A stretch of 64,000 nt of DNA from Lytechinus pictus (lineage: Eukaryota). Location: the NCBI RefSeq assembly GCF_037042905.1, contig NC_087252.1:1304001-1368000 (forward strand), read 5' to 3'. Of the stretch, positions 761 through 54,200 are shown piece after piece. Each line of letters begins with the position of its first letter. The stretch's first letter is position 1. A program made the position numbers and the translations under genes. The notes beneath the pieces are model-generated. The model was not told the origin of the DNA, ran no database searches, and was given only the letters and a program-made list of their open reading frames with translations.

Positions 761-1247
761 ATATAAGTCTAATCATCTTATTAATGTGTATGTCAGTTTA
801 GTCAATAGAACTGAAAATCGATTAATCAACGATTAAGACATTCTATATCAATCAATATATTGACCGGTTAATCGTTTTAATAAATAAAATAATTTCAGTA
901 ATGTGTCGGTCAATAGTTTTGTTTGTTTTATAGCGTGTTTTTATTGTCTTCTCTCAAATCAAATATACAATTACAATATAACTCCCATAAGCAAATTATA
1001 CAATCATTGAAACAGGTTTTATCACAGAATTACACAATTGTACAGCGATCATTGAGAACGAAAAATATATAATGATAAGTACATGTAACTTGTCTCTAGT
1101 ATAGACCGAAATTCATTGGAATCAGCAATGAAAAGAGAGAAAAATAAAGATAAAAAAATATTTACATTAACAATCGATCAATCAATAATGCGATGACATT
1201 ATGTTTTTTTTTTTTTTAGATTTTTACTCCTCCACATACATAACGCT

Positions 1248-1763
1248 GAATCCACGAAGTGGCACAACGTCCCAAAATCACGTGAAAAGTCCATTTTAAG
1301 TATCATTCTGTTTTAGAAGTCAATTCTTAGTATCTTTCAGATTTAGTATTCCTTGACTGTGGTTTATCATTTCACTGAAATTTAGAACCCAATTCTCTGT
1401 AATTAATGAGATAATTAAAGTGAAAAAAATGACACTAGTCTCTAAATCCTTTGTAAAATAATCCACGAAATGGCACGCACGTGCGCGCCGTTTCTACGTA
1501 CGCTGAAGTAATATTTTCCACAAAACGACACTTGTCATGCTTGTGTTTGAATCACTGCTATGTCAAGATTTGATGTTTATTCGATGAAATTTTAACATGG
1601 GAGGCAGGAGTAGATACCTGGCTCGTGGTATGTGCATTTGTCATTCTGTTAAATTTCACAATCATATAGCAACGGGCAATTGAAAATATAACAATCTTTA
1701 ACTGCGTTTATCTCGTTAAGTGAATTCGCCCATCAACGGTTGCGTGTGCCACTTCGTGGATTC
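1248..1763. mobile_element. MITE-like element with 19-bp terminal inverted repeats
   Basis: gaatccacgaagtggcaca (1248-1266) is the exact reverse complement of 1745-1763. There is an internal partial copy near 1462. No TSD resolved. Confidence 0.6.
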
Positions 1764-1861
1764 GGGGACGATATATACACTATCGCACACACACACGTAC
1801 ACATCCATACATATAGGCCAGTATGAAATTACAGTATTGAATTTCATCTGGGACAAATTTC

Positions 1862-1895
<34 letters not shown>

Positions 1896-2439
1896 CGCTG
1901 ACTGTTAAAAGCTACTGAAATCCGCCAATCTGATTGGCTTAAAGTGAATTTTGGTAGTTTCTTCATATCACAACTCTTTATAAAACGGGACCCTACCTTG
2001 TCCCTGGACTATATTTGCTGCTTCTCATGTCTTCATGCTACATGGGTGCGTTCGTCGGGGGGGGGTAATAAAGCATCAATACTATGGATCAATGCATTAA
2101 GATTGAATTAAGAACTTAACTCATTAAAAAACATACAACCCTTTACCATGTTTACCATGCACGCAGCCATCAGCATCGTCATCAAACTAAAGCTTGTGTC
2201 TACATACTTCCTTTTGGATAAAATGGTCAGACACAATTAGATCTTGGATCCAGTCGTGTTAATTTACTCTTAGAAAAGAAAAAAAGATAGCTGCGAACTG
2301 GAACCCTTTTGTCCGGTATATGGAACCCTCGACAAAAGGTTCCCAAAAAGTTATCGTTTTCAAAAACTTAAGAAGAATTCAGAGTGGCTGTTTAAGGTTA
2401 TTAGAACCGTTAGGGAACCTTTAAAGGTCCATTTAAGGG

Positions 2440-3110
2440 ATCTCAGATCCAATCATCATCTTGTCATATATTTATCTCTTCTAAGAGACATTGTCGACTG
2501 ATCAAGCTCTTGGATGTCGTAGTTTTTACATCTTGCCATTAATTTATCATCTCTTCTAATAGAAATGACGAGATCTCAGATCTAGTCATCTCACTACTTC
2601 TCTCATGTTTATCATGTCTATACTACAGAAGCTTAATCGAGCTATTATTATGTCCAAATATCAAGATCTGGGATTTCGTCGTGTCTATATTCTGAAGAAC
2701 AGAATGATGATCGTTATGCCAACGTTATGTGAAAGAGATGATCAAATTACAAGATATGGTACATCATTTTGTTATCTATTCTTTTCTAAATGGATGTTGA
2801 CATGAGATCCAAGAACTCATCATGTCTACATTCTGAAGAACTTAGAGAAGATCACCACACAAGTTCTTGGATGTCGTAATGTCTACATTTTTCCATTGAT
2901 TTCTATCATATTTTCTAGATAATGGATGTTGACATGAGATCGCGTCATGTGATTATACATTCTTATGGAAGCATAAAGTGCCCCCAGAATCTCAAAATTT
3001 CGATCTCACCATTGCTACAGAGATAGACTTGGATCTCATTATATCGATCGTTTTGGAAATGTTGGCTCGGTGACAATAACCTAGATGATCAAATTACAAG
3101 TTCTTGGATC
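2440..3110. repeat. Degenerate local repeat region
   Basis: Recurrent motifs: tcttggatgtcgta (~2508, ~2864), tggatgttgacatgagatc (~2791, ~2923), gatgatcaaattacaag (~2737, ~3085). Confidence 0.5.
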
Positions 3111-3277
3111 TTAGTGCTCTCTTTGTTGATTCTTAATACATGACCTTCGTCATGTTCGTTTAGTGGCCATCATGCTGATGAGCTAGCCGAGGCGTTATTC
3201 TCGTATATCAGGATAAAAGTTATTCCCAATGCCATACCATCTGCCGCCCTGTCTACAAACCTCGTAGGTTTCTGAAT

Positions 3278-4268
3278 TTAAGCAAATGTAGATTTGGTAG
3301 AACAAAGTTTTCTCCAAACAGTTTTGTTCTTAAAATACTTCAGGGCATTTTCACGGAATGTGCGATTGTGGTAGCAGTATATAATTGGATTTACAGCTGA
3401 TCCGCAAAAAACATGAACATTGCGACGTCATCAAATGGACGCGAGAGTACAGATGAGCTTCAGTATCGAAAACCATAATGATGTGAACAATACTCATTGG
3501 GATGCATGAAATAAAAAAAAAAGCAAGAGTGATGAAGATAACTTTCTGTGATGCCTTAACGCGAGAAGCGGTAATATCGTCTTGTGCTCTGCCGATAGCC
3601 AGCTCCATATCGGCTATTCGACGCGCATGTCGCATTGCCGTTCGCAGAATCAGCATGTTGAGGACAAGTAAGGTTGATACCGATGCGGTGATCGCTGTCG
3701 TCACAAGGAAAAACAGCATTCTACTACCAAGACCATACTGGAAAGTAGTCCCAGAGCAGAATATTGTAACGGTAGTTGGACTTTCTTCTAAATTGCTGAC
3801 TAGGTGAAGCATAAACCTAACGATACTCATCAACCAACTTATAAGTATCCCGATCGCGATTCGCTTCGTGGTGACGAGAGTTTGGTATTGGAGAGGTCGA
3901 TGAACGGCGATATATCGATCACATGTTACCATGACAATATGAAATAGATTATTGGCGGCTAAAAGATAGCTTAATGCCGAAAAATACCTTGAGTACATTT
4001 CAAGACATGTTATGTCGGAAAATACGACTCTCCGATAGACTTCCAACGGGATTCCGACCAAACCGTTTAATAAGTCTATAGCGGCTAAACTGGAGAGAAG
4101 ATAATATGTAGGTGTCCTAAGACGTTCAGTTTTGAGAAAGGTTGCGATTACCAAGAAGTTCCCTATAATTGAACCAGACATGATGAGAACAGCACATGTG
4201 ACGCAAACCCCTATATATACTGGGGGATTAGGAAGAAAAATCACAGTTGTATTGACAGGAGTCAACAT
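3278..4268 (-). CDS. Intronless rhodopsin-family (class A) GPCR with a frameshift in TM7 (pseudogene or sequence error)
   Basis: ORF 4268-3351 has TM1 GN (IIGNFLVI), TM2 LAAID, TM3 CDRYIAV, TM4 W and TM6 FISCIP. The TM7 end GSAVNPIIYCYHNRTFR...STFA* lies in another frame and stops at 3278-3280. The shift is at or near the A6 run at 3406-3411. Confidence 0.85.
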
Positions 4269-4877: not shown

Positions 4878-6385
4878 TTCCACGTCGCAGTTCATGTTCG
4901 ATTAAATCTCGTAAAATTGAATATTACAAAGATCAGTTTGACTGTGCCAAAGGCAATATGAAGAAAACATGAAAATGTGATCAATACATAGAGAATTAAA
5001 GGTGTTTATATACGCAAAAATATTGTTGACGGAGATAAAGTACAGATTCAAACTTGTTCCCTGATATTGCGAAAAAACTATTTTGTAAATATTGCATTCA
5101 ACTTAAATAGCAGTTTTACAAGCTCGCCTTGTCAAGATGTCACCACTCATATTAAGAGTAATAACAAGTCAATGTATTGTAATCCAATAACCGTGGGTCA
5201 AGTTATTGAAATAGTAAAAAAAATAAACATAAGTCAAATGTGGGCCATGGTGGAATTGATATAAGAGTAATAAAAAAAAGTATTTATTTCTTGTGTCAAA
5301 CTTTATGTGCAATATATAATGCTTGTCTCGAGTCGGGGATTTTTCCGACGCAACTCAAAATTGGTCGGGTTATTCCCATTTTTAAAGGTGGTTGTCCTGA
5401 AATACTTACAAACTATCGCCCAATTTCCATTTTAACTGTTTTTTCAAAGATTTTTGAGAAATTTATATACTGTATGTTAGATTACTGAATTTTATCAATG
5501 AGTGCAATATTATTAGCCCGAACCAACATGCATTTCGGGTGGGGTATTCCACATCATCAGCATTACTTGATTTTATTCAAAGTATTACTAGTGTTATCGA
5601 AATGAAAGGTTTATCAATTGGCTTATTTCTAGATTTACAGAAAGGGTTTGACACACTTGACCATATTATACTCCTAAAAAAATTATTCAACTATGGAATA
5701 AGGGGGAAAATTTGGGATCTTTTAAACAATTATTTAAGTCATAGACAACAGTTTGTAACTTTAAATAGTCAATAATCTAATTACAAGGACTTAAGGTGTG
5801 GAGTACCCCAAGGTTCTAACTTCGGGCCCCTTTTATTTACTTTGTATATAAATGATCTGTGCGATGTATCTTCGAAATTGAAATATATTTAATTTGCCGA
5901 TGATACAAATATTTTTATGTTCTGCAAGTGAAATTGGTGAAGTAAAAAAGGTAACTTCTTGGTTGACCATTAATAAATTATCTGTAAATATTTTTAAAAC
6001 ACAGTATATGGTTTTTACAAATAAGAAAATATGCATTGACAATCTGCAGGTGCAATTAGCAAATTTGAGTAAAGCAAAGGCATCGCAAGTAAAATTTCTG
6101 GTATTATAATTGATAGTAAATTGCTATGGGTTCCTAATATTGATTTGATTTGTAATAGAATTTCCAAAATCATAGGCATTTTGTACGGATTACGCAATTT
6201 TCCAATTACTGTTTTACGAAATATTTATTCCGCACTTGTTGCACCTTTTTTTGAGTTACGGTATTCTTGCCTGCGCAGTGCTTCTTATTCACACCTGGAT
6301 AGAATTTAAACTTCAAAAAAACTTCAAAAACGTGCAATAAGAATTGATAACCATTCATCTTTTTATAATCATGAAGAGTGCATAT
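4878..6385 (+). mobile_element. CR1/L2-like LINE reverse transcriptase fragment, degenerate (copy 1)
   Basis: Broken frames contain NYRPISIL..FSKIFEK, FLDLQKGFDTLDH, GVPQGSNFGPLLFTLYINDL and FADDT, with several stops and frameshifts. Confidence 0.9.
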
Positions 6386-6651
6386 ATATAAACCCGTCGT
6401 GACTGCGTGCCATGTCGGGACGGGAATTTTGAAATGTTCAACATTTTGGTCATGACAAAATTTAGCGACCGAGTCGTGGACTATGCGCAAAATGTTCTTG
6501 AACTCGTTGTGAACTCGTCTGGACGATGCGGGAGGATGCGTGGCAGTACGCGCAATGCTACGAATTTTTTGAACTGCCACGAATAGTACACGTCGTGTTC
6601 ACGAATATTTTGGCACGACACCGTCCGCATTGCGGAAACTCGTCGTGCCAA

Positions 6652-6858
6652 TGCCATTTTTTTCCTCTGCCATTATTACCGCTGCTATTTATTCCTCTGC
6701 CATTTTTACCTCTACCATTTTTACCTCTGCCATTTTTACCTTTGCCATTTTTACCTCTGCCATTTTTACCTCTGCCATTTTTACCTTTGCCATTTTTACC
6801 TCTGCCATTTTTACCTTTGTCATTTTTACCTTTGCAATTTTTACCACTGCCATTTTTA
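6652..6858. repeat. 15-bp minisatellite (tgccatttttacctc)n, copy 1
   Basis: About 13 tandem units. This repeat produces the spurious FLPLP/GKNGR ORFs. Confidence 0.9.
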
Positions 6859-6874
6859 CACCGAGCCGTTGAAG

Positions 6875-7169
6875 TGTAGATTGATTGCATCATTGAGTGG
6901 TTGTTGAATTGTAGATTGATTGCATCATTTGAGTGGTTGTTGAATTGTGTATTGATTGCATCATTGAGTGGTTGTTGAATTGTAGATTGATAGCATCATT
7001 GAGTGGTTGTTTAATTGTAGATTGATTGCATTATTGAGTGGTTGTTGAATCGGAGATTGATTGCATTATTGAGTGGTTGTTGAATCGGAGATTGATTGCA
7101 TCATTGAGTGGTTGTTGAATTGTAGATTGATTGCATCAATGAGTGGTTGTTGAATTGCAGATTGTTTAC
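6875..7169. repeat. 35-bp minisatellite, short array
   Basis: Unit tgtagattgattgcatcattgagtggttgttgaat, about 8 copies. Confidence 0.95.
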
Positions 7170-7183
7170 TCCCATTATACTCC

Positions 7184-8203
7184 CGGGTTATTCCCATTTT
7201 TAAAGGTGGTTGTCCTGAAATACTTACAAACTATCGCCCAATTTCCATTTTAACTGTTTTTTCAAAGATTTTTGAGAAATTTATATACTGTATGTTAGAT
7301 TACTGAATTTTATCAATGAGTGCAATATTATTAGCCCGAACCAACATGCATTTCGGGTGGGGTATTCCACATCATCAGCATTACTTGATTTTATTCAAAG
7401 TATTACTAGTGTTATCGAAATGAAAGGTTTATCAATTGGCTTATTTCTAGATTTACAGAAAGGGTTTGACACACTTGACCATATTATACTCCTAAAAAAA
7501 TTATTCAACTATGGAATAAGGGGGAAAATTTGGGATCTTTTAAACAATTATTTAAGTCATAGACAACAGTTTGTAACTTTAAATAGTCAATAATCTAATT
7601 ACAAGGACTTAAGGTGTGGAGTACCCCAAGGTTCTAACTTCGGGCCCCTTTTATTTACTTTGTATATAAATGATCTGTGCGATGTATCTTCGAAATTGAA
7701 ATATATTTAATTTGCCGATGATACAAATATTTTTATGTTCTGCAAGTGAAATTGGTGAAGTAAAAAAGGTAACTTCTTGGTTGACCATTAATAAATTATC
7801 TGTAAATATTTTTAAAACACAGTATATGGTTTTTACAAATAAGAAAATATGCATTGACAATCTGCAGGTGCAATTAGCAAATTTGAGTAAAGCAAAGGCA
7901 TCGCAAGTAAAATTTCTGGTATTATAATTGATAGTAAATTGCTATGGGTTCCTAATATTGATTTGATTTGTAATAGAATTTCCAAAATCATAGGCATTTT
8001 GTACGGATTACGCAATTTTCCAATTACTGTTTTACGAAATATTTATTCCGCACTTGTTGCACCTTTTTTTGAGTTACGGTATTCTTGCCTGCGCAGTGCT
8101 TCTTATTCACACCTGGATAGAATTTAAACTTCAAAAAAACTTCAAAAACGTGCAATAAGAATTGATAACCATTCATCTTTTTATAATCATGAAGAGTGCA
8201 TAT
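7184..8203 (+). mobile_element. CR1/L2-like LINE RT fragment (duplicated copy 2)
   Basis: Identical to 5366-6385. Confidence 0.9.
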
Positions 8204-8469
8204 ATATAAACCCGTCGTGACTGCGTGCCATGTCGGGACGGGAATTTTGAAATGTTCAACATTTTGGTCATGACAAAATTTAGCGACCGAGTCGTGGACT
8301 ATGCGCAAAATGTTCTTGAACTCGTTGTGAACTCGTCTGGACGATGCGGGAGGATGCGTGGCAGTACGCGCAATGCTACGAATTTTTTGAACTGCCACGA
8401 ATAGTACACGTCGTGTTCACGAATATTTTGGCACGACACCGTCCGCATTGCGGAAACTCGTCGTGCCAA

Positions 8470-8676
8470 TGCCATTTTTTTCCTCTGCCATTATTACCGC
8501 TGCTATTTATTCCTCTGCCATTTTTACCTCTACCATTTTTACCTCTGCCATTTTTACCTTTGCCATTTTTACCTCTGCCATTTTTACCTCTGCCATTTTT
8601 ACCTTTGCCATTTTTACCTCTGCCATTTTTACCTTTGTCATTTTTACCTTTGCAATTTTTACCACTGCCATTTTTA
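8470..8676. repeat. 15-bp minisatellite, copy 2
   Basis: Duplicate of 6652-6858. Confidence 0.9.
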
Positions 8677-8692
8677 CACCGAGCCGTTGAAG

Positions 8693-10350
8693 TGTAGATT
8701 GATTGCATCATTGAGTGGTTGTTGAATTGTAGATTGATTGCATCATTTGAGTGGTTGTTGAATTGTGTATTGATTGCATCATTGAGTGGTTGTTGAATTG
8801 TAGATTGATAGCATCATTGAGTGGTTGTTTAATTGTAGATTGATTGCATTATTGAGTGGTTGTTGAATCGGAGATTGATTGCATTATTGAGTGGTTGTTG
8901 AATCGGAGATTGATTGCATCATTGAGTGGTTGTTGAATTGTAGATTGATTGCATCATTGAGTGGTTGTTGAATTGCAGATTGTTTACATCATCGAGTGGT
9001 TGTTGAATTGTAGATTGATTGCATCAATGACTGGTTGTTGAATTGTAGATTGATTGCATCATTGAGTGGTTGTTGAATTGTAGATTGATTGCATCATTGA
9101 GTGGTTGTTGAATTGTAGATTGATTGCATCATTGAGTGGTTGTTGAATTGTAGATTAATTGCATTATTGAGTGGTTGTTGAATTGTAGATTGATTGCATC
9201 ATTGAGTGGTTGTTGAATTGTAGATTGATTGCATCATTGAGTGGTTAATTGTTGAATCGGAGATTGATTGCATTATTGAGTGGTAAATTGTTGAATCGGA
9301 GATCGATTGCATCATTGAGTGGTTGTTGAATGGTAGATTGATTGCATCATTGAGTGGTTGTTGAATTGTAGATTGATTGCATCATTGAGTGTTTGTTGAA
9401 TTGTAGATTGATTTCACCAGTGAGTGGTTGTTGAATTGCAGATTGATTGCATTATTGAGTGGTTGTTGAATTGTAGATTGATTGCATCATTGAGTGGTTG
9501 TTGAATTGTAGATTGATTGCATCATTGAGTGTTTGTTGAATTGTAGATTGATTTCACCAGTGAGTGGTTGTTGAATTGCAGATTGATTGCATCATTGAGT
9601 GGTTGTTGAATTGCAGATTGATTGCATCATTGAGTGGTTGTTGAATTGCAGATTGATTGCATCATTGAGTGGTTGTTGAATTGTAGATTGATTGCATCAT
9701 TGAGTGGTTGTTTAATTGTAGATTGATTGCATTATTGAGTGGTTGTTGAATTGCAGATTGATTGCATTATTGAGTGGTTGTTGAATTGTAGATTGATTGC
9801 ATCATTGAGTGGTTGTTGAATTGTAGATTGATTGCATCATTGAGTGTTTGTTGAATTGTAGATTGATTTCACCAGTGAGTGGTTGTTGAATTGCAGATTG
9901 ATTGCATTATTGAGTGGTTGTTGAATTGTAGATTGATTGCATCATTGAGTGGTTGTTGAATTGTAGATTGATTGCATCATTGAGTGTTTGTTGAATTGTA
10001 GATTGATTTCACCAGTGAGTGGTTGTTGAATTGCAGATTGATTGCATCATTGAGTGGTTGTTGAATTGCAGATTGATTGCATCATTGAGTGGTTGTTGAA
10101 TTGCAGATTGATTGCATCATTGAGTGGTTGTTGAATTGTAGATTGATTGCATTATTAAGTGGCTGTTGAATTGTAGATTGATTGCATTATTGAGTGGTTG
10201 TTGAATTGTAGATTGATTGCATCATTGAGTGGTTGTTGAATCGTAGATTGATTGCATCAATGAGTGGTTGTCAAATTGAAGATAAATTGCATCATTAGTG
10301 GTTGTTGAATTGTAGATTGATCTCATCATTGAGTGGTTTTCGAATTGAAG
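8693..10350. repeat. 35-bp minisatellite, long array (about 47 units) with higher-order structure
   Basis: Head-to-tail 35-bp units with no unique spacers. Confidence 0.95.
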
Positions 10351-12200: not shown

Positions 12201-14174
12201 GAGTCTGTACTTTACATACATTATATACTAACATCCTTTACAGTACTTTGACAAACCACTGACTAAAACAAAATCATGAACAGAAAACATTTAATATTAT
12301 AATAGAATTTATAAACTTCAAACACTCTGTTTAATGCAAGAAAATGCTTTCAATTGCAAGTTCTGAACTGTATTTTACAGTATTTTAACGTTTTCAATTT
12401 GATATATTGGAACACTTAAAATCTATCGGTGATATGCCACACTCTTTCAACTAAACTTAAGTCTTTGTGAACAAGGCACATGATCTTGTAAAAAAAAATA
12501 CAAGATGACCTTATACAGGGTGACCATCTCAACTAAATATCCATGCTTCCTGTAACAGGGTGAAAATTACTTTTTTTAAAACCTTAAGTTTGTGAGTTGC
12601 ACAGAAAATTTTAATGAAAACTGACCTCAAATTGATATTCAATTACCCAAGAACACACACATTTGCTCGATTTTCCTGATTAATTATACATTCTAGTCAA
12701 TATCATCAATCATAAAAAAAAGTTCTCCATTGTTGCTAAGTTTTGTGTTACAGGCCCCTGGTATATGCATACACTGTACCTATACATGTAATAACTAACT
12801 TTGTGTCTTTTTTTTTTATTCCGAAATAAAATATCATGCAACTTCATTTTCATCAGAAGCATGCATTTATTGGGATATGCGCTGAGTTATGAGTTGCTCA
12901 AACAAACACTTGCTGCTATGGCCCCTGATGGACAAATACTCTTCAATTTATATTAAAATTAAGGAATTTTGAGAAACCCAAAGATACATCTCTTACTTAT
13001 CACTTAATTATCGATTTCTCCATGAAGACCTATACAAAATCCTGTGAAGAAATGTCACGTTGAACTTATTGATGAAAAACAATCCAAACTGAGTTGTTAT
13101 ATTTACTCGTATAAAAGAAATACCGGTAGAGAGTGTAAATGAGCCAAGGCATTGAACTAATGAAACCATTTAAACTCTGTCAACTGCTAAATAAACCTCA
13201 GATAAACAAAATTACAAACATCTGTTCAAATTTGAATCACAAATATATTCTGTTATAATTCTTATGTACCCAATCATGTTATAATTAGGCGTATGGTTCG
13301 TTCCAGTTATTGATTGATATAAGAATACCAAAAAAAAGTGTTTGAAATATCAAACAAATGTTAAGAAAATTCATCATGAAATAGAAAATTCAATGCGATT
13401 AAAATAATGATTATAACAAATAGAGGAAGAATAAACAAAATAAATCAAAAATCAATATTGTGGCTGTAATAGATTAGTTAAAACAGGAGCAAGCCCACAT
13501 GCATATGGCTTGACCCAAAGATATTAGAATCAATCCAAGAGATAGAAAAGACGGATTTGAGATTAAATGTACTTCTCTTTGAACTCTGCACTTACGAAAA
13601 CTCTTACCCTTTTACCTTTGAAATCCCCCTCCAGTTTATAAGGATGTTCGGGGAAGGGGGTGGTGTTCCATCAACATTTGTCCAGCGACAATTCAAGTCG
13701 ATGCTAAATTACAAAGCCCTCAGATGACCTCTAACACTTGTCAGAAGACATTATTCTCAAATTGAGTTGAGTGAGGTTCTCTGACTAATTAGGTCACAAC
13801 CACTCCCCAACTCCCCAAAATCGCAAGAAAGATGCCAAAGAATTTAATAATGTTGTGCCAGGACTATGAAACCAAACGGGAAGTAGATGAGCATAGACAA
13901 AATTGCAGTTTACTGCTTCTCAAGTTACTCCTCCCAAGCCTGCTGAGTTTTGAGTTAGTGGTCTGATCGGGAAGGAGTTGTTGGTTGACCTAAGATCTGT
14001 GTGGGACAGCCGAATATCTCTCTGATCTCGTCATGGAATTGATCCCCGTCGCTATAAAGAGAGTGGAAATCAAAGTAAAATTGAGTATTGCATACTGGGT
14101 TCTGTATCTTTAACGTCATCACACACTTACAATTGGTCTGCGACCCGATCGGGAATAAAACATAGTAAAATTTG

Positions 14175-14583
14175 GTGGATTCACAATATGGTGCGCCATC
14201 TATCGGTTGCCGCGAACAGGCCAAATTTCTATCTTCGGGGTCGACATCGAGCGCAGGCAGCGCCATAGAGATTAGTATACATCTCTATGGGCAGCGCACA
14301 GTGCACTGTGATGTGACTATGATGCTTCAAAAATGAAAACAATTTGGCAAAAGCAGCGGAAAAATTCACCGAAAACGGTCAAAATTTTGCAAAGAAATAT
14401 GCGGCAAATTTCTCTCCCACCTCCTGGACCCAAGTAAACAGCATATGTAAGCCGGTAGAGCCCTGTTGGCCAGCGCAGCATAATCGCATGCATGCAAGAG
14501 ATGTCAACTTTTTCCCAAGAGGCATTGCAAATTTCGTCCTGTCCGCTGCAACCAATAGATGGCGCACCGTATTGTGAATCCAC
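14175..14583. mobile_element. Inverted-repeat element (about 50-bp imperfect TIRs) flanked by 23-bp direct repeats
   Basis: gtggattcacaatatggtgcgccatctatcggttgc pairs with gcaaccaatagatggcgcaccgtattgtgaatccac. The flanks are ggaataaaacat(a/t)gtaaaatttg at 14152-14174 and 14584-14606. Confidence 0.7.
14256..14297. mobile_element. Putative P-element-type excision footprint (26 bp between 8-bp direct repeats)
   Basis: ggcagcgc|catagagattagtatacatctctatg|ggcagcgc. Confidence 0.7.
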
Positions 14584-17241
14584 GGAATAAAACATTGTAA
14601 AATTTGATGCAAATATTAGGACATGGAACATCTTACTGTAATAAGTTCTATAAATACTTTAATTTAAATCTGTGGCTATGCCACCATCCTTATTAGAATA
14701 AATGCAAATTGAATATCTAGTCGTAATGACTTCATAGCAATCCTCCTACAATTGACTACAAAACCAATTTGGTCTTTACTCCAAAACAATGTCTTGCAAT
14801 CATCAAAAATTGTTATATTAGTATTCTTACAGTTAATTTGAATCTCAAATAAAAAGATAAAGAATCATTATTACTTCTTTTGGGGGAATGTTTCATAAAC
14901 ATACCTTTAGACTCAAATCTCAATGTGTTATGAGCTCATTTAGTTCTTTGGAATGTCAACTCTATGATAGTCTACTTTAATAAAGGGAATCCAGTCACTT
15001 CAGTTCTTTGGCACCACCAAATAATGTAATCAGCCTCCGTCTTGTCTGGCTCTTGTAATTGCTCCAAGGTATGCTTTTGAAGTTCTGGGTGAAAAACAGA
15101 AGTAAACTGAAGTGTGATTACAATAGTGTATTGATATACATGTATTACTGATTTATAAGATATACCGCAATAAATATTTCTTATGTTATCATTGTATATA
15201 TTGTAAAACAAATGTTCATGTCAAGTGAATGAAGTTTGTTAATAAGTTAAATTCAATTCAATAATATTAACTATACTTTCTTATATTTGCCTTACAATTT
15301 CTTGATCAGGACACTGTTGCAAAAAAGAGTTGTATTTGAACACAAAAAATCAAGACTGAAATTATGAAACTATATGATCTTTCGGGGAGTTTTGTTAGGA
15401 AATTAAAAATAAATATTTAGATAAACTCACCATACTTGGCTATGTTTTATTCTATCCATGATCCGGCTGGAATGACCTGCTAACAAATGGAGGATTTACA
15501 AGGTGTGGCAGTACAAAGAAGCAGAATGAGTCTCTGAACAGTTCTTGCTTGCTGGGAAAAAAAAGAGAAAAATCAAAATGACTTTCCAACAGATTAGAGT
15601 TAGATTCATATGGCACTTTAAAAATCCTTGTGTTTTTGGTGATTGAAACATAATAAATATATCCCTGGGCATTGGATCTATCACTGTTCCACAAATAGAA
15701 TGCACCATCTCCACTCCTTGGGGAGCAACCTGGCCAGGCAACAGTGGTTTTTTTACCAATGCTTACATTGCAAGTTTCTTCTCCTACACTGCTAATAGTC
15801 ATGACTAAATATACGAAATTCCTGAAATTAGAGGGGGAATGGTATCTAATTCCTCATCAATGGAGTATGTTATTAATATTAGGGTAAACAAAGACTAGAT
15901 TATCAATATTCATTAATGGAATACAGCAAAAGTTCTTAATTCATTGTTTCAAACTCTAAACATTTCATGCAAAAAACGTTTTTTCAAAAACTTCCAACAC
16001 AAATAGAAAATTTTAGCAATAATGTATTAATTCAATATTTCTTTTTCTTCAAAATGTTAGTGTTAGGAAACAAGGAAAACTTTGCCAACAATTTGTTTAT
16101 ATTAAAAAAAAAATTAAAACTCAATATTTTGAACTCTGTACAATACTGATGTGAATAAACATGGAAAGCTTCTCTGCAAAGTTCGAATTAGAGAAATGAA
16201 CACAATTTAATTTTTTTTTCAGTTTTGAACATCATATCCTTAACCTTCATCACAATGATAAACTAACAATTCCTTGCAAAGTACATTCAGCAACAGTAAG
16301 AAACTGTCATAGACTAAAAAAGGTCCACACAATTTTGATGGCAGTCAGTTTTCTGTCAAAATTGTTGACTGTATATTCATCCTCTTATCAAATTATGCAA
16401 CACAGGTGAAGTTTCAAACATCCGCAGATAACAGCATTGTTTATACCCTATGTTTTTGTTTTGCTTCGAAGCATGTTTGAGATCAAATGGCTCCTCAGGA
16501 ATATTTTATCAACGATTGTCATTTGACATGTTGTGAGATCAGACAAATTTCCTAAAATTTTGATTGGCTGAGAAGCACAGTTCCTATGGTAACCATTGGA
16601 TTAAAGAGACCTTTCATGAAACCATAGTGTAATCCATTTGTTTCAATGAAATATAAAAGTGCCACATTATATCTCACCCAAAGTTAAGAAAAGGAAAAGC
16701 CTTGTAGGGCAATCAAAGTTGAAAAAGATAACCGAATTGTATGAACAATCCTGTAATATTATCAAGTCTACACACATAATATCTATTCTCTTTTAGAAAA
16801 TGTTTTGTCCTAAAATGCAATCATTCATATAACCCACCCCCTTTATATTCTTGAGTGTTCTGTGTCCTTCTTTATGGGAGGATCCAGTCAGGCTAGACAA
16901 CATTTCACATACTGATTATGAACAGAACAATGGTGATGTTGTAGGCCAGAGTTGGACGTGTGTTCCACCAGTGATGGTCGAGGTTTTGACATAGAATAAA
17001 GTTCATTGACCTTATATGTGCTGTGTTGTTCATTGAACTCTGGTTCCATATACGTCCAACCCTGACCCACGACAGTGAGCCCATCTCGAGTGTTGCCTGA
17101 TCCGACTAGATCCGTCACTGCTTCTGGGCCCAATAATAAAATCTTCCATGGCAATTCATCATAGATAGACTGAAAGCACATATTTTCATTGCAATTATTC
17201 TTGTTAAAATCCCCCTTAATCAAACCAAGTAGTTCTAGACT

Positions 17242-31035: not shown

Positions 31036-32708
31036 GGGGGGGGGGGAGTTTACTGCTTGAAAAATCGTAGGGAGCGCTTGTTCACTGTGGGGCCGACCCT
31101 GCTAAGGGGTGCAGTTCGCAACCTCGTATCACTAACCTTTTTCTCCAGAACATCTCTTCATCTTTATCCTTTACCAAAATATGCCAGTAATGCCACCCCT
31201 CTCCAGTTCCCTAAATTCCAACTGCTCCGTTCACACCCAGTTTTCCCGTAGAAGTACACAATGTTATATAAAATGATGAGGTGTCGGTTTGGCCACGCCA
31301 CTTGTTATTAGAGAGACATTGTGAAATCGTCCATGTGTTTGCTTTTATAATGGTACTATTTATTTTGTGTGTACCTGGGGAAAGGAAATGGGAGGAAACC
31401 AAACATAAAATCAAACCATCACGTGTATAGCTATCATAGGTAGAGTAAACAATACTCCGGGAAAATCATAAAGAACTCGACCAAAAATAATTATAATAGA
31501 CCTCGAGATTTGTTGACATTGACTCTTTTGGTGTAAAGTTCGAGGATACTTTTTAGGGATGTGGTGCATGTTAACACCAATGGCGGATCCAGTTGGGGTA
31601 ATAAAACAAGGGATACCCCAACCATCCATTATAACATTTTGAGAATCACTCATTAAACATAGAAACTTACCATCCGCGCCCCTCTATGTTAAAATTTGCT
31701 CTTTGCGCCCCTTATACAGTATATATTTGGAAACCGGATACGTTATTGGGTAAAATGGTTGCAAATGAAATCAACGCAATGCCTAAATGTATTTTTCTTC
31801 TTCTCTTTTTTTCTTTAAAGATGTGTTTTTATTTCTGTGTTGAATTAAATACATCATGCCATTGCCTGCAAGACTGCTGCCTTGTATAAAACCTGCGAAA
31901 AGTGTAATGTTGTTAAAGTAGACATGAGATCGAATGAAAATTGTAAGTGCGGTTTTAGTATGATTGTATGTAAAAGTTGCTCGATGAGGTAAAACGTTGG
32001 GCGGAGGGGGCGGGGCGCTTATTTTACTATGCTCAAGGAGCAACGTTCAGGCTTTATTTTTTACCAAACATACCACACGATAGCAAATGATTATACATGT
32101 ACATGTATAATAATATAACTTTTAATATAGTATACATCACAAATTCTTTTCAATATTATGACCGATTCATTGTTGTGCAGAGCTTCTGCATGTGTCGTAC
32201 ATTAAAATGCAATGAAAATGTGGGCGTGGATTCGTCTCCTAGGTTACACAGCCGATACAATGGTTTGACCTTTTCTTCTCCAACCCGGGGGAAGAAAATT
32301 CTGATTATCAGGAGATTATTAACGACTGGAATAAACTCAGATAACTTAAATTTTCCATACAACCGATGCAATGTAAACTTAAAAGAAAACGCTTGAAAAT
32401 GGTTGCTTTTGCTGGGAGAGGCAAGTTACGCGGTTTATGGTGTAAAAAGTAAAAACTGCAATACAATATCAGGTAGGGGCCTACCAAGGCGACCATGCAT
32501 ATTTCTAGAATAAAACGCTCACATTTTTTCAGCGGGGAAGGTCTACTCCAGTATTCCTTTCCTTACATGCACACCCGACGTAAGCTTCTTGGTCTTAATT
32601 TCCGCGCGATTATTTGGTCCTAATTTTATTGCCACTTTTTTTTTTATACATATGTTATTTTTGAGGAGCAAAGTAAAAAAAAGTATGTAGAGGTAGGTGA
32701 ATATGTTA

Positions 32709-35486
32709 TAGTCCAGGATAGGCCCCATAGGAACTTGACCAAACCTTGTTTTTTTATATATACAATATTTTTTGATGGTTTCTTGTCAATTCGAGGGTGC
32801 TGATTACGAATCTGGATGATGCCACTCGTGTAACCTTGAGCATTTTCCGCAAATTGGCAAAATCCAATATGGCCGCCAAAATATGCAAATTACCCATGAA
32901 AATCATAAAATTGTCCGCACATTGGCTATGAAATGCATGAAATCGTGTGGCTGGAGTGAAATACTCTGTCAAAAAATGATTTTTGACAAAATCTTTATTT
33001 TCCTGATATTCAAAATGGCCGCCATAGGCCATTGTATACTCTACTATGTACAATATGAATAGGAAAACCAATTTTCACAAAAATTAGCACTAAACTGCAA
33101 TAAATCGCGATGTATGAACGAAGTAATATATGCAAATCATCATTACTAACGAGATATATCATTTATTATGTCATATATGGGAACATTGCTGTATTTTGAT
33201 GTAAAAAATAGCCCACTGGCCCAAACAGTATTATATACTGTACAATGGCAATGGCCGGGGCCAAAAAATTGACAATTAAGAGTGAGCACTAAAATGCATA
33301 TTATTAAGATTAAAAAAAACCATAATTGTTAATATGCCATTTAGGTGATAAATGCTGCATTTTGAAATTCAAAATGGCCGCCATAGGCCCTATATTTATC
33401 ATGTACAATGCGAATGGAGAAACTAATTTTCACACGAGTAAGAAACATAAAATGCATGAAATTGTGATCTACGAGTAAATATTGTCTGACAACATGTTTT
33501 ATAGCAAGACATATCATTTCTTTTGTCATGCATGAGATGCTGTATTATGAAATTCAAAATGGCCCCTGTAGCCTAGGCACTAACAGTATTATCTACAATG
33601 TGAATGGGGACATATAATTTTGTAAAAACTTGGATTTGCTTGACTATGACATCCATATAATCCTGTTGTATGAGTAAAATGTTATTTGAAAACATATTTT
33701 TTTTTATAAATTATAGCATTTCATCTGCCATATAGGTGATAAATACTGTATTTTGACATTCAAAATAACCTCTACAAGCCCTAATTATATTATGTAACAT
33801 GCGAATAGGGAAACTAATTTTCACAAGAGTGAGAATCATAAAATGCATATAACTGTGATGTACGAGTAAAAATATTGTCTTAAACATGGTTTCTAACTAA
33901 ATACATCACATATTGGTCGTGGAGGTAATAAATGCTGTACTTTGAAATCCAAAATGGCTGCCATAGGTCCTCAAAGTATTGTGTACATTGTAACATGGGA
34001 CATAGAATTTTGACAGAATTTGGCTTTGCTTGACTCTAAATATTGCATATAATTGTGAATTGTGATCTGAGGGTGAAATATTGTCTAAAACCATGGTTTC
34101 TAACGAGATATAATTATCATAATGTTGTGTAATTAAGGTGATATATGCTGCATTTTTAAATTGAAAATGGTCACCATAGGCCCTTATCGTATAATATGCA
34201 ATTTGAATGGAGACAAATAATGTTCACAAAAAGGGCATATGGCAGCCATTTTGAATGTTGAAATACAGTATTTATCACCTAAATTACATAAGATATGATA
34301 CATTTTGTTATAAATCATGTTTTCAGACAATATTTCACTCATACATCACCATTTGGCCAAGCAAAGCCAAAATCTGTTGAAATGATTTGTTCCCATTCAC
34401 ATTGTGCATAATACCGTAAGGGCCTGTAGCGGCCATTTTGACATTCCAATAACAGTATTTATCACCTAACTGGCAGAATAAACGATATATCTTAATAGAA
34501 ATTATGCTTTCAGACAATTTTTTACTCATAGATCACTATTACGTGCATTTATGGTGCTCACTCCTGTGAATATTGGTTTCCCACTTTGCATTGTACATAA
34601 TACAGTTAATGTCTATGGCGGCCATTTTGAAAGTCAAAATACAGTATTTAACACAAACTTGAAACCTGAATGATATATTTTGTTAGAAAATACGTTTTTA
34701 GACAGTATCCCATTAATTTATCACATATGCATTTTAGAGCTCACTCTTGTGATTTCTTTGCTCCTCTTTCTCATTGTGCATAATACTTTTAGGGCCTTTG
34801 GCAGCCATTTTGAATATCAAAATACAACATTCATCCCATACATGGCATATTAATAATATATTTCGTTAACAATTATGTTTTTAGTCAGTATTCCACTCAT
34901 TTAATCTTAATAATATGCATTTTAGTGATCACTCTTGTGAATTGGTTGGCCCCCAATTGCCATTATACGCAATACTGTTTGGGCCAGTGGCGGCTATTTT
35001 AGATATAAAAATACAGCAATGTTCCCATATATGACATAATAAATGATATATCTCGTTAGTAATGATGATTTGCATATATTACTTCGTTCATACATCGCGA
35101 TTTTTTGCAGTTTAGTGCTCATTTTTGTGAAAATTGGTTTTCCCTATTCATATTGTACATAATAGAGTATACAATGGCCTATGGCGGCCATTTTGAATAT
35201 CAGGAAAATAAAGATTTTGTCAAAAATCATTTTTTGACAGAGTATTTCACTCCTGCCACACAATTTCATGAATTTCATAGCCAATGTGCGGACTATTTTA
35301 TGATTTTCATGGGTAATTTGCATATTTTGGCGGCCATATTGGATTTTGCCAATTTGCGGAAAATGCTCAAGGTTTCACGGGTGGCATCATTCAGATTCGT
35401 AATCAGCACCCTCGAATTGACAAGAAACCATCAAAAAATATTGTATATATAAAAAAACAAGGTTATGCCTCTTCTATCCTGGACTA
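32709..35486. mobile_element. 2.8-kb foldback element with TAG termini and 3-bp TSD (Academ-like, non-autonomous)
   Basis: tta|tagtccaggatag ... ctatcctggacta|tta. The outer arms of several hundred bp are near-perfect inverted copies (ORFs 32754-33071 minus and 35105-35452 plus mirror each other). Internal modules are about 190-200 bp. Confidence 0.85.
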
Positions 35487-36207: not shown

Positions 36208-36253
36208 ATGTACATCATAGAGATGTATACTAATACATCTCTATGATGTACAT
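36208..36253. mobile_element. Putative P-element-type excision footprint (30 bp between 8-bp direct repeats)
   Basis: atgtacat|catagagatgtatactaatacatctctatg|atgtacat. Same end sequence as 14264-14289. Confidence 0.7.
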
Positions 36254-37763: not shown

Positions 37764-39867
37764 TGACTACCCAGACTTGATATTGTTGTCGAAATGTCCC
37801 GTACAACACGTATGGAATCGCCCCAAAGGGAATACGAACATATTTGTACATGCAGTGGTAGAATACGAATTTAGAATATCCACCGAACAGGGACCGAACA
37901 TCAATGCATTTCACTTGCGATGTTGACATGATCTTCCGCCCCTGGATAGTTTATCTCTTTTCCTATTTAAAGCTAGTTTCCCGCTTTTGATAAAGTTTTA
38001 TTGTCCAAAATGGGGTCGAGTCTCGCCATTGTAAGGTGTAGAAAGCTGTGAAGCAACGCAGATTGCAATGTAGAAAAATTGTATGAGAATTGTAATGATT
38101 GTGCATTCATGTTTGTGCAATATGATCCCAGTATGATCCCAGTATGATCCCAGTATGATCCCAGTACATCTATTCTGCATGACCGACATTATTTTCACCT
38201 CGGCCTATTGTCCATGAATAACGGCAACAGCAACAACAATAAAAAATAAAGTAATTCGTTTCGATGAGAAACAAATTAAGGATAGAATATAATTATTGTG
38301 TTCTGTCAAATTCAGAATAAGACTAGAGTTGTACGTAGGCCTACAGAACAAGGTTTTGAGGTTGAAGAGAAAGAAAAGTGGATGGACACTATCATATCCC
38401 GACAGAAGGTGATGGAACAAGGTTTATTGAAGAAAAGCCACTAAGATGGGGAGAGAGTATCAGAGTAACGAGGGGAGGGGGGGGGGGTCAAAGTAGATTA
38501 GTTAAAGAAGAAATAAAATGAGATGTGGGAGGGGGAGGTATATGGGATTGCAATTAGAACACAACGGATGTTTGTGTCTTTTGAATTGTAGAGTATTATA
38601 TAAGATCAATTTGTATATGTTTTTATGATTAGCTAAGAATGCTTTTCACTCGAAGCATATTCATCATTTGCGATAAGTCTACCGTATGTGTCACTTTCTC
38701 GACGCAATCGCTGTGCGGAAGAAAAATTTCGAAATATGATTTATGAATATTGCGCAATGCACGTGTTTGCGAAACCATGGATAGGTCCATGGCGAAACAA
38801 AGCATACATGTATAGTGGTCTCTGTTGCTATTTCCATTGAGCTACTAACGGAGTAATATAGCTCCACGCTATTTCATTGCACATACATCTTTTTTTTTTA
38901 ATTACACGTCTTTACTCGAGTATGCGGCTAGCGCGCGCTAATCGATGTTCCCTGCGCCCTGTTGCAAAAAAAAAATCCAGTCATGTCATCTCTGTATGAG
39001 AGGGTATAGTGCAGGCTGAAAATAATAATTTTTATACTAAATAAGGTAAATTCAACAGAGCAAAAAGCTGATTATGACATTTGAGTCTGATAAAAACAAA
39101 TCTGTATTAGACTATTAGGGTACCATGCATGTATGTGCCCCCACCCCCAGGATGGGAGAGAAGGCTCCTTTCTTTTTTAAAATAATAATCAAACTTTTGA
39201 ATGATGACAGCCCCCACCCTTTTTTTGTTCTCTTCAAAAAAAATTAATTCAGCGCCTCTTCTTACATTTATTTGTAATTTATGGAACCACTCCCATGACA
39301 CTTGAACCCTGAACGAAGATCTGATTCGACAGAAACGAGCACAGTGCAACAACCCGCGTCTGCGCATGTCCCATTTCCAACGGTGCTTACCCGATCGTAG
39401 TCTATAAACCCAGACTCATTTGAAGAAAAAAAAAACACCCGAACATCACACACACACGCACGCGCACAAATGTGTCCCACAGGCCAAGACCCTGTTTCAT
39501 AAAGCTTAGTGATTGTTCTTTGGGTTGATTTCTACTCTTTGATGAACGATCCATCGTAAAAATCATTCGCTAAGTTTTATGTTACGGGGGTGGGGGCGAT
39601 TCATACAACAATGTCTCTGCCTACTTGATCACCCCAATAAAAATGCAATCGATAATCTGTATTAATGTATCAGCCAGCATCATTCGTGCATGGAGATTCT
39701 GTGTGTTTACACATGATTCTGTGTGAGCTTACCAAATGCGACCGTCTGTACGTTTGCTCTTAGTTTACAAGAAAAAATAATGACGTCAATAAAATCCCCG
39801 ACCCCGAGATGGCATTTGTATTTAGGAAACGCTGAATCATTCAAGTGACATTAGTCTTTTGTATCAG

Positions 39868-48200: not shown

Positions 48201-51200
48201 AAGTGATCTACCGGGATGTTGCAATGCTTCCCAAACTAAATAAATGAGCTTCTAAGTGTGCAATATTAAGTTTCAGAATTACATGTAGCCATGGGAAGTT
48301 AAACAGACATTTACGTCACAATACTGTTGTTGTTGTTGTTGTTGTTGTTGCTATCTTTCAATGTTTTCTGAAATAAGTTGGATATTTCTACTCTTGCGTT
48401 ATTACCAACTTTCGGATTCTTTTCAAGTAAATATCTATGAGGTGCTTTGAAATAACATATCCCCGCAAGTTAGAACATTTTAAAAATATATGAATATTTG
48501 TAAACATTAACACATGCTGTACTAGTATATTCGTCTACGGAGTTATGGGCCGGTACATAGACCCAACTAGAGTTCATTTGGATTTTATTCTGTGGCATAT
48601 CGAATAACAATAATTGTAGTCCCGTGTGTATCAAGCTTGCTATATTTTATCTTCTTCTCGACTGTTCTAAATCATGATTTGTTTGTTTTCTTATCAATAG
48701 TAAATTTGCTTGGGTATTAATGTTTAGTTTGCGAATTGAAAACTGCACAATAGACTTCCTTTTGTTGACCCCTTTAACCCTTGTTCAAACCGTGCTGTAA
48801 ACAATTACAGTGCTCTGTGCAAATAGGGGTACTAGCATAGAGCTATGGTACTAGTAAACGTACACCCATGTCTACGTCTGCGTACATAATTAAATGGGCA
48901 TTGACTGTGTGTGCATGTACTGTACAGTGGGAGCGTTTTTGTGCATGTATGGATGGGGAATCCCCGGTTACGCAGTAATATCGATGCCGCCCATTGAGTT
49001 TTCGTATTTATCCCTTGCAAAATACTTCAGACGCTTTCTGCGTTGCAATGGCAATGGTATCATGGAGTTTGTCTTGAAATCAGTGGCGTAGCTAGGATTT
49101 TTTTCCCGGGGGGGGGGGGGGCACTGGGGGGTCCTTGCTTTTTCAGGGGGGGCACCGGCCATTTTCCGGCGGATCCGACTTTCGCCAATAGGGGACGGGG
49201 CCCGAAATTACCTTCACCTATATCAGTCACTTCTTAGTTTTATTCTTATAAAACAACATAAACATAAAATAATCTCATAAGCCTTATAAAAAAAAGTGCG
49301 AGCGTGAAGCGCGAGCGATTTTTTATTTTTTTTTACTTCAATGTATTTTTTCCTGAAAATCTAATTTTCTGGGCAATGTTATGTGTGATCCTGAACAAGA
49401 TTCGTATGTAACTAGATGGTTACTTCGAACGCCAAGCGCGAACTGAAATTTTTATCAACTGTTCTAGCATTATCGAAAAGGGACCTGTTAAGGACTGCAT
49501 TTTGCTCAGTAAATTATACTCTATTTATTAAGCTATAAATACTTCCAGCCCGGACCATCCCTTTAAGTGATGACCATAAATTATAATCTATCACGGCCGG
49601 ATAATGACGTTCACGCATACGGTCAAAATGGTATCTAAATTAGCAAAGTCAAGGGGTGTAACCGTGTAAGCCCGCTTTTTAACAGCCTAATACGTGATGA
49701 TTGTGTGTATGTGTGTGGGGGGGGGGGGGTCACACTCTTGAAAATGTTTTAAGCATTATTGAGGAAGAGGAAATCATAACAAAATACTGGAATGACTCCA
49801 CTTGGATTCTTGGGAAGATCAAGGAGTTGTGCTGGTAACTCCTTGGGAAGATCAATGTATAAGCACGGTGCCTCACTAGACTGCAGGCACAGACCCTGAT
49901 CGAAACTTTGATCAGCAAGTGCGTCTCCGCGCAAAGACTAGCACATACAAAACTTGCTGTTTCAAGAGGGCCTTCAGTACACAAGGCATGAGTAGACTGC
50001 ACATTCAGACTGTTAACTCGGGTGAAGGGTTTGCACAGCAGACTAGTGCCTTACCTTGAAATGACAGTGGGTCCTACATCTATGCCATGGAGGGGGGGGG
50101 GGGGGGTCCCACACCACTCCGGTGTGGCAAGGTGGGCCCTAACCGGGAAACATGTGATCGTAAGGTCCAAAGTTCGACCAAACATCACAATTAAATGCAA
50201 ACATAATGGTGTTTGACAACCAGCCAAGATGTTCGAATCTATTTCATGAGAAACGTGGCTTAGACGGTGTTTTTCCCCATCGTTCAAATCGCAGTTCTTA
50301 TCTACTGCGCAGTTCTAAATGTCCACAATGGTCAGTTACATTTTATTATCTTTAAACACATACATGATGTATTCGGATTATAGGGGCGTCGTGGTCTCTT
50401 TGTTACGACTCTCGTCTTTCAAACAGAGGGTCGTGGGTTCGAATCCCAGCCATGGCGTGTTTTCCTTCAGCAAGAAATTTACCCACATTGTGTTGCACTC
50501 AACCCAGGTGAGGTGAGTGGGTACCCGGCATTATTGATTCCTTGAATGCTCTGAGCGCTGAAAGGCGGCTCGAGCTAAAGCCGGGGTAATCATGATAACA
50601 ATGCGCATCGGAATATATTATTTCTAGATAGATGGCGCTATATAAATGCCTATTATAATTTTTGTTATAATTGTGTTGAGATTTTTCTTCTCCCCCCATA
50701 ATTTTTTTGATTTCCCTTCAATTTACTATAGTCCTGTGAAAACGAATTATAGGAGTATTAGAGATGTAAAGCCCTTTCGAGTGGTTCATCTGCTTGGCGC
50801 ATTGGCATGAAATTAGGAAATCGGTACATGATTCATATTTGTAATCATTATTCAATTTGTTAGATGTTTGTAATATGTATTGTTTAGTCAGTAAGCTGTT
50901 CATTCTTGGTCCTAGTACCCCCCCCCCCCTCCGTCTCAGTCTATCTTCCTTATTATCCCCTTTTCGATGATAGTAATGGCGCAATCTTGCGTGTGAAATC
51001 GTTTTAGAGGTGATAGAATCTTAATGGAATGAGGAAATAGTTGGGAAACCCGCAACACACAGGCATTGTTAGTCCAGACAAGTTACGAAGAAAGATGTAC
51101 ATGACTGTACACGTCAAGCTGACCACATTCCCCTATCATGGGATTGTGGGGTGTTAAACGGTTATTAAAGGGTTATTGGGGCTGAAAATAATTTATATCT

Positions 51201-54200
51201 AAATAAAAGAAAGTAACATTCACAGAGAAATATGCAGAAATGTCATAAAGATCTTATAACAACTAACGAAATTAATTGATTTTAAAGTTTAACAATATTT
51301 TGTGTCCGAAATTTTCTTGTTCGTATTAAAGTTATGCTATAATATATGAAAACATAGAAATTTCATATTTTCATACATGTTTTTATGATGTCTCCCTTAT
51401 GATAAAATTAGTTGGAGCAATAAATCTTTATAAATTCATGAGTTGTCAATCAATGTTTTAATTCTTGAGGACAACATTTTAATGAACATGATTTGTTTTC
51501 ACCAGTTGACTTGGCAAGATAACGTATCCCGTCATGTCAACATAATAAGGCTATTAAATCGACTTGGTAAGATAATAGTATTTCGCCATCTCGTCAATTC
51601 TATTGCACTTTATAAAGACTCTGTTATTACAAAATAAGTTGGCAAACTACGAACATGGTCACATGTTTAATAGATTTCTCTGTATTTGTCTCTAAAATAG
51701 AAACACAAACTTTTAGTATTTTTCATTTCCCTTTATTTGGTTAACCATATCACACCTACAAACTACACCTCGTGACAGTCGTATATGCCTACCGCTTGTA
51801 TACAGGTTTTAATCATTTCCTTTAATACACTCAGCGCAATTTGAATTTACAGACTCCCAGGCGCTCCCAGGTATGAGTGGTAATAGGGGAAATCCCTTTT
51901 CCGTAATTGAAGGTCTGATAAACTATTATTGTTTTTGTAGTGTATGCTACGCCGAGGCTCAAGCTAAATATCTGATACTTACATGTAGAAGGAAATAGTG
52001 TAAGAATAAGCCGTCATAATTATTGTTCAAGGTTTTATGTGAATTCTGCAGTTTATATATTTATTTTTTCATGAATAATGTAATAAAACTGCTTGTTTTC
52101 CTTTTCCGCTGTTTCGAAAATACTATATTGATATTTCGCTAGATATTGAATGTGTATTGTTATGCTTATTAGAATAATGATTTTACAAATTATAATCATC
52201 TGTTAATCTATTTAAAATGTAACTGTAATTTTGTGATAGATTTTGACATAATAATCCCAAGATAATTTAATATTCTCTCTTTTCATTTCCTTTTTTTATA
52301 TTCCTTTATCTTTTTTTTATGGTCATGGAACGGTCGGGGTGTAGTGCCTAAGCCCCCCCCCCCCCCCCCCCCGTCAATCTACACGCCAGTGTTTCAGTGT
52401 TATATCGCCATGTACGATTTTTTTTACTCTTACATATTAAAACAATATCCCCCCATAATCATTGATTTAATTCATCTCGGTTTTTTTCTCTCTTCTGTCT
52501 ATCATTATTCTCCACTAGGATATCCTCCATCATCGGCTCCGTTCGCTGTCAATCCATTCGTCAGTCTATCAATCGCCATCGATTGCCAGAGAGCTACCGA
52601 GCAAGATTCTGATGGAGACACGTAAGATATTCATTTCGTGATATCCATTGTTGATCAACATTAGCCGACATTCTCTGCTATCATGATGGTCCTTTGTTTG
52701 TATTTAGTTTCCACTGTCAAGAGTTGTGACACGATTGAAACAGTTATCTTAATCGTGGAGTAATCGTCGTGTGAAATCGTATCAGATCTGAAGGTCATTC
52801 GTGGCAATCATTTTGATTCTTTAAAAAAAAGTGGAGGGCGAAAAAAAAATTCGCGATTAGCTACGGAATATCAATCGTAACTGATCGTACGACAACGGGA
52901 ACGAGGTATTAGTATTACGATTGGCCTACGACCCAAGGGCTGCCAACTATCACTTATACCTCGGTCACGTTTGCTCTACGGCGGCCGTACGGCGAGTCGA
53001 AACAGTCGTTTTATTAAATTTAATTCAAGCCACCTTCATGTATATATAGCTGGGAAAAAAATGTTTCGACTCGCCGTACGGCCGCCGTAGAGCAAATGTG
53101 ACCGAGGTATTATTGAGAGTGAGACTCACACATTTTTTGTCTTTTCTCACTCTAAAATTATGTTTCATTCGCATGCATTTCTAAATGATTTCACTCATTT
53201 TGACCCCTAAAGTAATTGGCCTGTGGGAGTCACTCTCAACTAAAGTTATCAAATGTTGGCACTGCTGCGACCCGAATTATCAATAAAAAGTTATTACAGT
53301 TATTGATGAGGAGATTTAGTCATGAATCCAGCTGGAGGCAAAAGTTCTGAATTGTCACTTGAATAAAAATCAATTGCTATTTCATTCTTTAAAGCGAATT
53401 CAATTCATAATCGTTATGACATCACAGCAATCGTACGATTAGCTACGATTGTAAGCCAATTATCTTCATGTTCTTATGTCCTTGATTAATTTTGTCGTAG
53501 CATTTAAAGCAAACAATTGTCCCCGTGTACCAAATTATATGTAATTATGTGAAATTGTCTCCTGAAATCTTTGCGCATGGCAGGCAACCTTTTTTTTTTA
53601 TTATTATTATGATTATGCACCAGCAACAGGTGCATCATATGTGAAATACACCTTCACGAGGGCGACACTTTCACCAGCAACTCTACCAGCCTGTCTCACC
53701 AAATCAAGGGCAACATCACATGCACTACCACTAATGTTGTATATCTCATCACTTGCAGAGTTTGTAGGGTACAATACATAGGGGAAACCAAGACCACACT
53801 CAAGAAACGATTCTACGGGCACAGATCCACTGTCAACACAGCAAAGCTGGACACTCCAGTTGGCCGCCATTTTAACCTCCCCAACCACTCCATCACTGAC
53901 ATGATGCTACAGGGCATCGAATCTTTAGGTACCCGTCCTGACTCAGTCCGTACTAGTAGAGAGAAGTTCTGGATGAGACGACTTCGCACCACCCAACCTC
54001 ATGGCCTGAACATCCAAGAGGGGAACGACTGATTATTCTTTCCTATCCACTTTCAATTTATATATACATATAATTTTTCCCCTCAGCTCTTTTGAATAGT
54101 TACATTATAGTTTCTTACTCTACTTTCCTCCCATATCTCATACAAGCTCAGCTCCAATTTTTCCTTCCTTATTCAGGCGATATAATAATTATTATATATA

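Follow-up and report, generated by a model that had tools for sequence, protein, structure and literature searches.

Positions 14256–14297 of the window, by which we mean the whole 64-kb stretch of DNA that was analyzed, hold a short hairpin set between two copies of an 8-bp word. The question raised by this locus is whether the arrangement is the healed donor site of a P-superfamily transposon and, if so, whether it records how deeply the transposase cut into its own terminal repeat. We refer to it below as the focal scar, and to the multi-copy element in which it lies as the host.

Structure of the insertion and its surroundings

The original prediction described an 8-bp repeat around a hairpin, and on re-reading the sequence its letters proved exact. 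A 26-nt hairpin core, CATAGAGATTAGTATACATCTCTATG, is bordered on either side by the target copies GGCAGCGC; subtracting the 9-nt mirrored arm from the core length leaves 17. GGCAGCGC is non-palindromic, and the focal duplication is therefore a true direct repeat. The features of the locus are as follows.

14052–14904, minus strand: 853-nt GT...AG intron holding the host element and the scar, defined by contig joints and GT/AG ends
14169–14588, no strand: multi-copy non-coding host element of the focal scar, with ~55-bp terminal inverted repeats at 14175–14228 and 14529–14583
14256–14263, no strand: target-site duplication, left copy, 8 bp, GGCAGCGC; present as a single copy in paralogous empty sites
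14264–14289, minus strand: core of the focal scar, 26 nt, read as a long remnant of one end (17–19 nt) fused to 9 nt retained from the opposite end
14290–14297, no strand: target-site duplication, right copy, 8 bp, GGCAGCGC; from direct sequence inspection

The repetitive nature of the host is evident from a summed contig depth of ~800–3900, versus 15–26 in unique flank, and from loose contig ends at 14169, 14583 and 14588. Contigs from all four of the public runs examined (one study) connect 14051 to 14905, and this joint, together with the GT...AG ends on the minus strand, places the focal scar in an intron. As the intron is spliced out, no contig spans the focal scar in its native position. 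We regard the scar as most likely inert intron DNA, and assume it to be germline since it forms part of an assembly.

Empty sites were sought among contigs of the same study (runs X1–X4) placed at 80% likeness, which represent paralogues of the host and not alleles. In contigs from X1 and X4, position 14263 is followed at once by ACAGTGC, the sequence found behind the right-hand GGCAGCGC in the window, and a contig from X3 carries a variant empty site, likewise with a single GGCAGCGC; for X2 there was no empty site among the matches listed. Since these host paralogues have one GGCAGCGC and lack the core, the window copy carries a 34-bp insertion, consisting of the core and one target copy. The view that 14256–14297 includes inserted DNA is thus borne out by the empty paralogous sites.

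Several further features of this neighborhood were observed. A perfect 14-bp palindrome, CACAGTGCACTGTG, adjoins the focal scar (14297–14322); in paralogous contigs, 3 letters stand in place of the ~18 found in the window, which makes the palindrome region a second small insertion beside the scar. The host itself is bounded by a 23-bp direct repeat with one mismatch (14152–14174 and 14584–14606), and its host-free flank is seen in contigs (joint 14149–14586). Other host copies continue with CAAATT after 14583 or with TG after 14588, letters that the window copy lacks. The 23-bp repeat may reflect either an unusually long target duplication or homology-guided insertion, or alternatively a 9-bp duplication with altered tips. 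Both host terminal repeats contain a CTCF-like motif (14194–14206 and 14552–14564, two of the five such matches in the window). One CTCF-like match is separated from the focal duplication by 48 bp, and the other four scars described below have no such motif nearby.

Similar micro-hairpins in the window

A search for CATAGAG...CTCTATG flanked by 8-bp repeats had been proposed as a check on the original prediction. When run on the window, the pattern CATAGAG-N0-30-CTCTATG gave two matches (shuffle mean 0.01, largest 1), and both carry an exact 8-bp duplication. The second match, at 36208–36253, was absent from the original prediction and came to light through this pattern search. Its 30-nt core lies between two exact copies of ATGTACAT, a palindromic word that differs from GGCAGCGC. 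As the shared core stands between unrelated flanks, its source must be an element, not the flanking DNA. One of the 21 window copies of another word, TACATGTA, overlaps the target of this second scar.

A general scan of the window for short inverted repeats bordered by direct repeats returned 14 rows, to which we applied a filter for CA...TG ends, an arm of at least 5 nt, a length of no more than 40 nt and an exact duplication of 7 or 8 bp. Five sites pass (14264, 36216, 38776, 48836 and 49820), all with CA...TG ends, two with 8-bp and three with 7-bp duplications. The four sites other than the focal scar are listed here.

36208–36253, plus strand: second scar of the focal family, 30-nt core at 36216–36245 (17–19 + 13 nt) between two ATGTACAT copies
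38769–38798, no strand: probable scar of a further family (CATGG end), 16-nt core at 38776–38791, 7-bp duplication GCGAAAC
48829–48854, no strand: probable scar (CATAG end), 12-nt core at 48836–48847, 7-bp duplication GTACTAG
49813–49852, no strand: scar of another family (CAAGG end), 26-nt core at 49820–49845, mirrored arm of 9, 7-bp duplication GGAAGAT

Against these five, 300 Markov simulations (orders 2, 4 and 6) yielded means of 0.01–0.05 such micro-hairpins and a maximum of 1. As a control, hairpins with the same 9-bp arms were retrieved from a viral collection, and 0 of 27 loci were flanked by a duplication. The same micro-hairpin scan over 43 other loci (563 kb, drawn from collection matches) gave one low-complexity match. 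One further candidate, at 31658–31688, has no duplication and was dropped. A chance arrangement, for which the shortness of the sequence might speak, is refuted by the shuffles, the simulations, the control hairpins and the empty sites, and we regard it as negligible.

The remainder of the window has an animal character, with Pfam matches to GPCR, C2H2 zinc-finger, ankyrin, reverse-transcriptase and GIY-YIG frames; in a protein cluster search the GPCR frame matched eukaryotic GPCRs, the nearest clusters coming from several animal phyla. Other repeats in the window include a 2.7-kb fold-back element at 32742–35464 (arms of ~470 bp that are 96% complementary, with internal repeats), and a 1818-bp tandem duplication at ~5445–6995 and 7263–8813 that carries a reverse-transcriptase fragment and a 15-bp repeat array, with identical frames 1818 apart. 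At 52984–53082, a 79-bp element whose inverted ends measure 11 bp, with a direct repeat of 10 bp, sits within a longer hairpin, and the GIY-YIG endonuclease frame at 53613–54032 is likely a fragment of a Penelope-like retroelement.

Origin of the insertion

We consider that the 34-bp insertion is probably an end-joining scar, formed when the donor site of a cut-and-paste transposon of the P superfamily was repaired. In this scheme, a P-superfamily transposon would have inserted with an 8-bp target duplication and would later have been excised. By analogy with the biochemistry of the fly P element, the transposase would sever one strand at the tip of the element and its partner deep within the terminal repeat, so that both flanks would carry the same long 3' single-stranded tail. 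End joining would then keep one tail whole, trim the other to 9 or 13 nt and ligate the two, with both target copies staying in place.

Several properties of the window sites are those of a P footprint. Exact 8-bp duplications stand on both sides of the two same-family cores, and 7-bp duplications on both sides of the other three. The focal-family cores can be parsed entirely as remnants of the two terminal inverted repeats with CA...TG tips, the same end being found at two unrelated sites. The junctions vary between copies (cores of 26 and 30 nt, short arms of 9 and 13; n = 2). It should be considered that CA...TG ends with an 8-bp duplication suit hAT elements likewise, that ATGTACAT is compatible with hAT-type target patterns, and that just two copies of the focal end family are present in the window. 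From the anatomy of the scar we infer that the enzyme would belong to the P family.

The fly system provides the closest comparison. Drosophila P transposase cuts at the 3' end of the element and, on the other strand, 17 bp inside a 31-bp terminal repeat (PMC7776569), so that donor ends carry 17-nt non-complementary 3' tails whose repair gives the order target, part-end, part-end, target (PMC2895639, PMC7776569). Junctions recovered from Drosophila melanogaster resemble the scars described here in having the 8-bp duplication on both sides, CAT...ATG ends, and two terminal-repeat remnants head to head, of which one can be retained at full length (PMC2895639). They differ in being laboratory events at one site in Rad51 mutants (PMC2895639), whereas the scars in the window are natural, lie at several sites and belong to more than one family.

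Within the superfamily, 8-bp duplications are described for P and 7-bp duplications for 1360 and Galileo (PMC3698922). The latter size, with CA...TG ends, is a feature that 1360/Hoppel and Galileo share with three of the five micro-hairpins (PMC3698922, PMC4168063). GTACTAG (48829–48854) fits the Galileo target GTANTAC at 6 of 7 positions, whereas the other two 7-bp targets, GGAAGAT and GCGAAAC, fall outside the Galileo consensus as given in that source (PMC4168063). THAP9/P transposase homologues are stated to span sea urchins to humans (PMC10983969). Zebrafish Pdre2/THAP9 is, like the source of the focal family, a deuterostome system, with an end that begins CATA and an 8-bp duplication; unlike the focal family, it has a 13-bp terminal repeat of other sequence (PMC10983969). 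In fly cells, zebrafish THAP9 gave larger flanking deletions than the fly transposase (PMC10983969), and neat scars are therefore not guaranteed for every P-like enzyme.

The original prediction called for full-length parent elements bearing the focal end, and none was found in the window or in the viral, metagenome and prokaryote collections. The 64-kb window has no longer element with this end. A Pfam scan of the 150 longest of its 329 open frames, covering frames of at least 74 aa (179 shorter and 18 low-complexity frames were left out), found no THAP domain and no P transposase. Searches of the collections with the focal 17-mer gave two viral loci lacking a second end and duplication, which we take as chance matches; 40 metagenome loci, none with the second end and duplication in the DNA retrieved (24 of the 40 have one identical flank and so represent one locus seen repeatedly); and a single match in prokaryote genomes, without duplication. 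The 17-mer of the CAAGG family matched one viral locus, again by chance. Two of the metagenome contigs, L006 (2425–2441) and L009 (191–207), come from a single assembly that looks fish-like by eye. In these, the 17-mer is followed by G or T and neither contig has a partner end. They are a lead towards a 17-nt unit, not evidence for one, and possibly point to a related P-like family in fish.

Of the alternatives, extreme internal deletion survives best, although we think it unlikely. Here, excision of any terminal-inverted-repeat element that duplicates 8 bp (P, hAT or other) would be followed by gap repair from the sister chromatid, in which a few bases of each end are copied before end joining, and the arm lengths would carry no information on cut depth. 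Wild-type flies most often show aborted gap repair followed by end joining (PMC2895639), a route that could lengthen a 17-nt tail to 19, and the searches above returned no parent element for the focal family. However, aborted synthesis should scatter the arm lengths, whereas the same long arm occurs in both family copies and the value 17 in three of five micro-hairpins; nor does the window contain a longer deletion derivative with the focal end.

Perfect ends and perfect duplications at all five sites would also suit a mobile micro-MITE of 26–30 bp, moved as a unit by a transposase. This we hold to be very improbable, as P transposase requires internal binding sites beyond the terminal repeats that are missing in the 26-mer (PMC7776569), and as the two copies are unlike in length and short arm, so that the window offers no set of many identical copies. 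The single fixed tiny MITE that the original prediction had named as its own alternative is disfavored by the same pair, which differ in length (26 and 30 nt) and stand in other flanks.

A fold-back derived from the flank, either as a hairpin-opening footprint of hAT/Transib type or as a templated repair insertion from local DNA, is likewise very improbable. A hAT-type footprint consists of flanking letters copied in inverted orientation and keeps no terminal-repeat DNA. All 46 nt of 36208–36253 do fold as one hairpin (z −9.8), and the 14-bp palindrome adjoins the focal scar. Against this stand the identical 19 letters between unrelated flanks 22 kb apart, the empty sites without the core, and the non-palindromic focal duplication. 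A hAT-type flank hairpin was accordingly rejected, as one core lies between different flanks and the duplication copies are intact.

For the reading as a P-type excision scar, the insertion, its form (as in fly P junctions) and its variable length speak in favor; the further claim of the original prediction, a 17-nt cut conserved in this lineage, was not established.

Depth of the proposed cut and its meaning

The original prediction also held that exactly 17 nt of one end had been retained. As the first 19 letters of the two focal-family cores (26 and 30 nt) are identical, the long arm may be 17, 18 or 19 nt; 17 stands as a minimum, and the exactness does not. Length minus mirrored arm is 17 in three of the five window cases (14264, 36216 and 49820), representing two end families, and this value agrees with the cut of the fly P transposase. 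Both short arms (9 and 13) end directly after a self-complementary AT. When the two joins are parsed with a 17-nt tail they show no microhomology, with 18 nt one letter and with 19 nt two letters. If a 19-nt tail were kept whole and annealed through its two final letters, the expected products would be 20, 26, 30 and 36 bp long, and 26 and 30 are the observed lengths. The lengths expected of an intact 17-nt tail that anneals by microhomology are 19, 25, 27, 29 and 32 bp, which include neither. Were the joins blunt and their depth random, agreement of the two junctions over two more letters would arise in 6 of 78 arm pairs.

Fly junctions offer a measure of how such ends are joined. By our own count of Table 1 of PMC2895639 (n = 66, Rad51-mutant flies), one junction is blunt, 27 use 1–3 nt of microhomology (2 nt in 21 of them), 20 have long microhomology and 18 carry insertions. 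A 17-nt tail would make both of the present junctions blunt, a class that accounts for 1 of 66 in fly P (PMC2895639), and this suggests that the tail here may be 18–19 nt. Such a tail, with 1–2 nt of microhomology, would fit the junctions at least as well as 17 nt. Against the deeper cut, the second end family (CAAGG) gives 17 as well, repair in this animal may be unlike that in the fly, and an A slipped or added on a 17-nt tail would give identical products. We see an even chance that the tail is 18–19 nt, its final A or AT having paired with a T or AT inside the opposite tail; a 17-nt tail with a blunt or slipped join is a serious contender at somewhat below an even chance, and a tail of other length is improbable. 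These gradings are a matter of judgement and were not computed. Fold-back of a single tail was also considered and found unsupported, as isolated 17- and 19-nt tails do not fold by themselves.

The kind of object described here is known already from the P-excision junctions of laboratory flies. In the literature considered here, a long staggered cleavage is attributed to the fly P transposase alone. A literature search that covered little of the subscription literature turned up no natural P-like scars from non-fly genomes, which is weak evidence of their absence. Natural scars in another animal group would make long-tail cleavage a shared trait of the superfamily. We tentatively entertain the possibility that P-superfamily transposases are not uniformly 17 nt deep, and that the 18–19-nt tail of the focal family would be the first indication of a different stagger in the superfamily; if the 18–19-nt reading is true, family cut depths could become readable from natural scars without the enzyme. 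Combined with the end sequence of a parent, such scars would give each family's cut depth and its germline end-joining habits from sequence alone. Five such scars per 64 kb would mean that excision often writes small palindromic insertions into introns.
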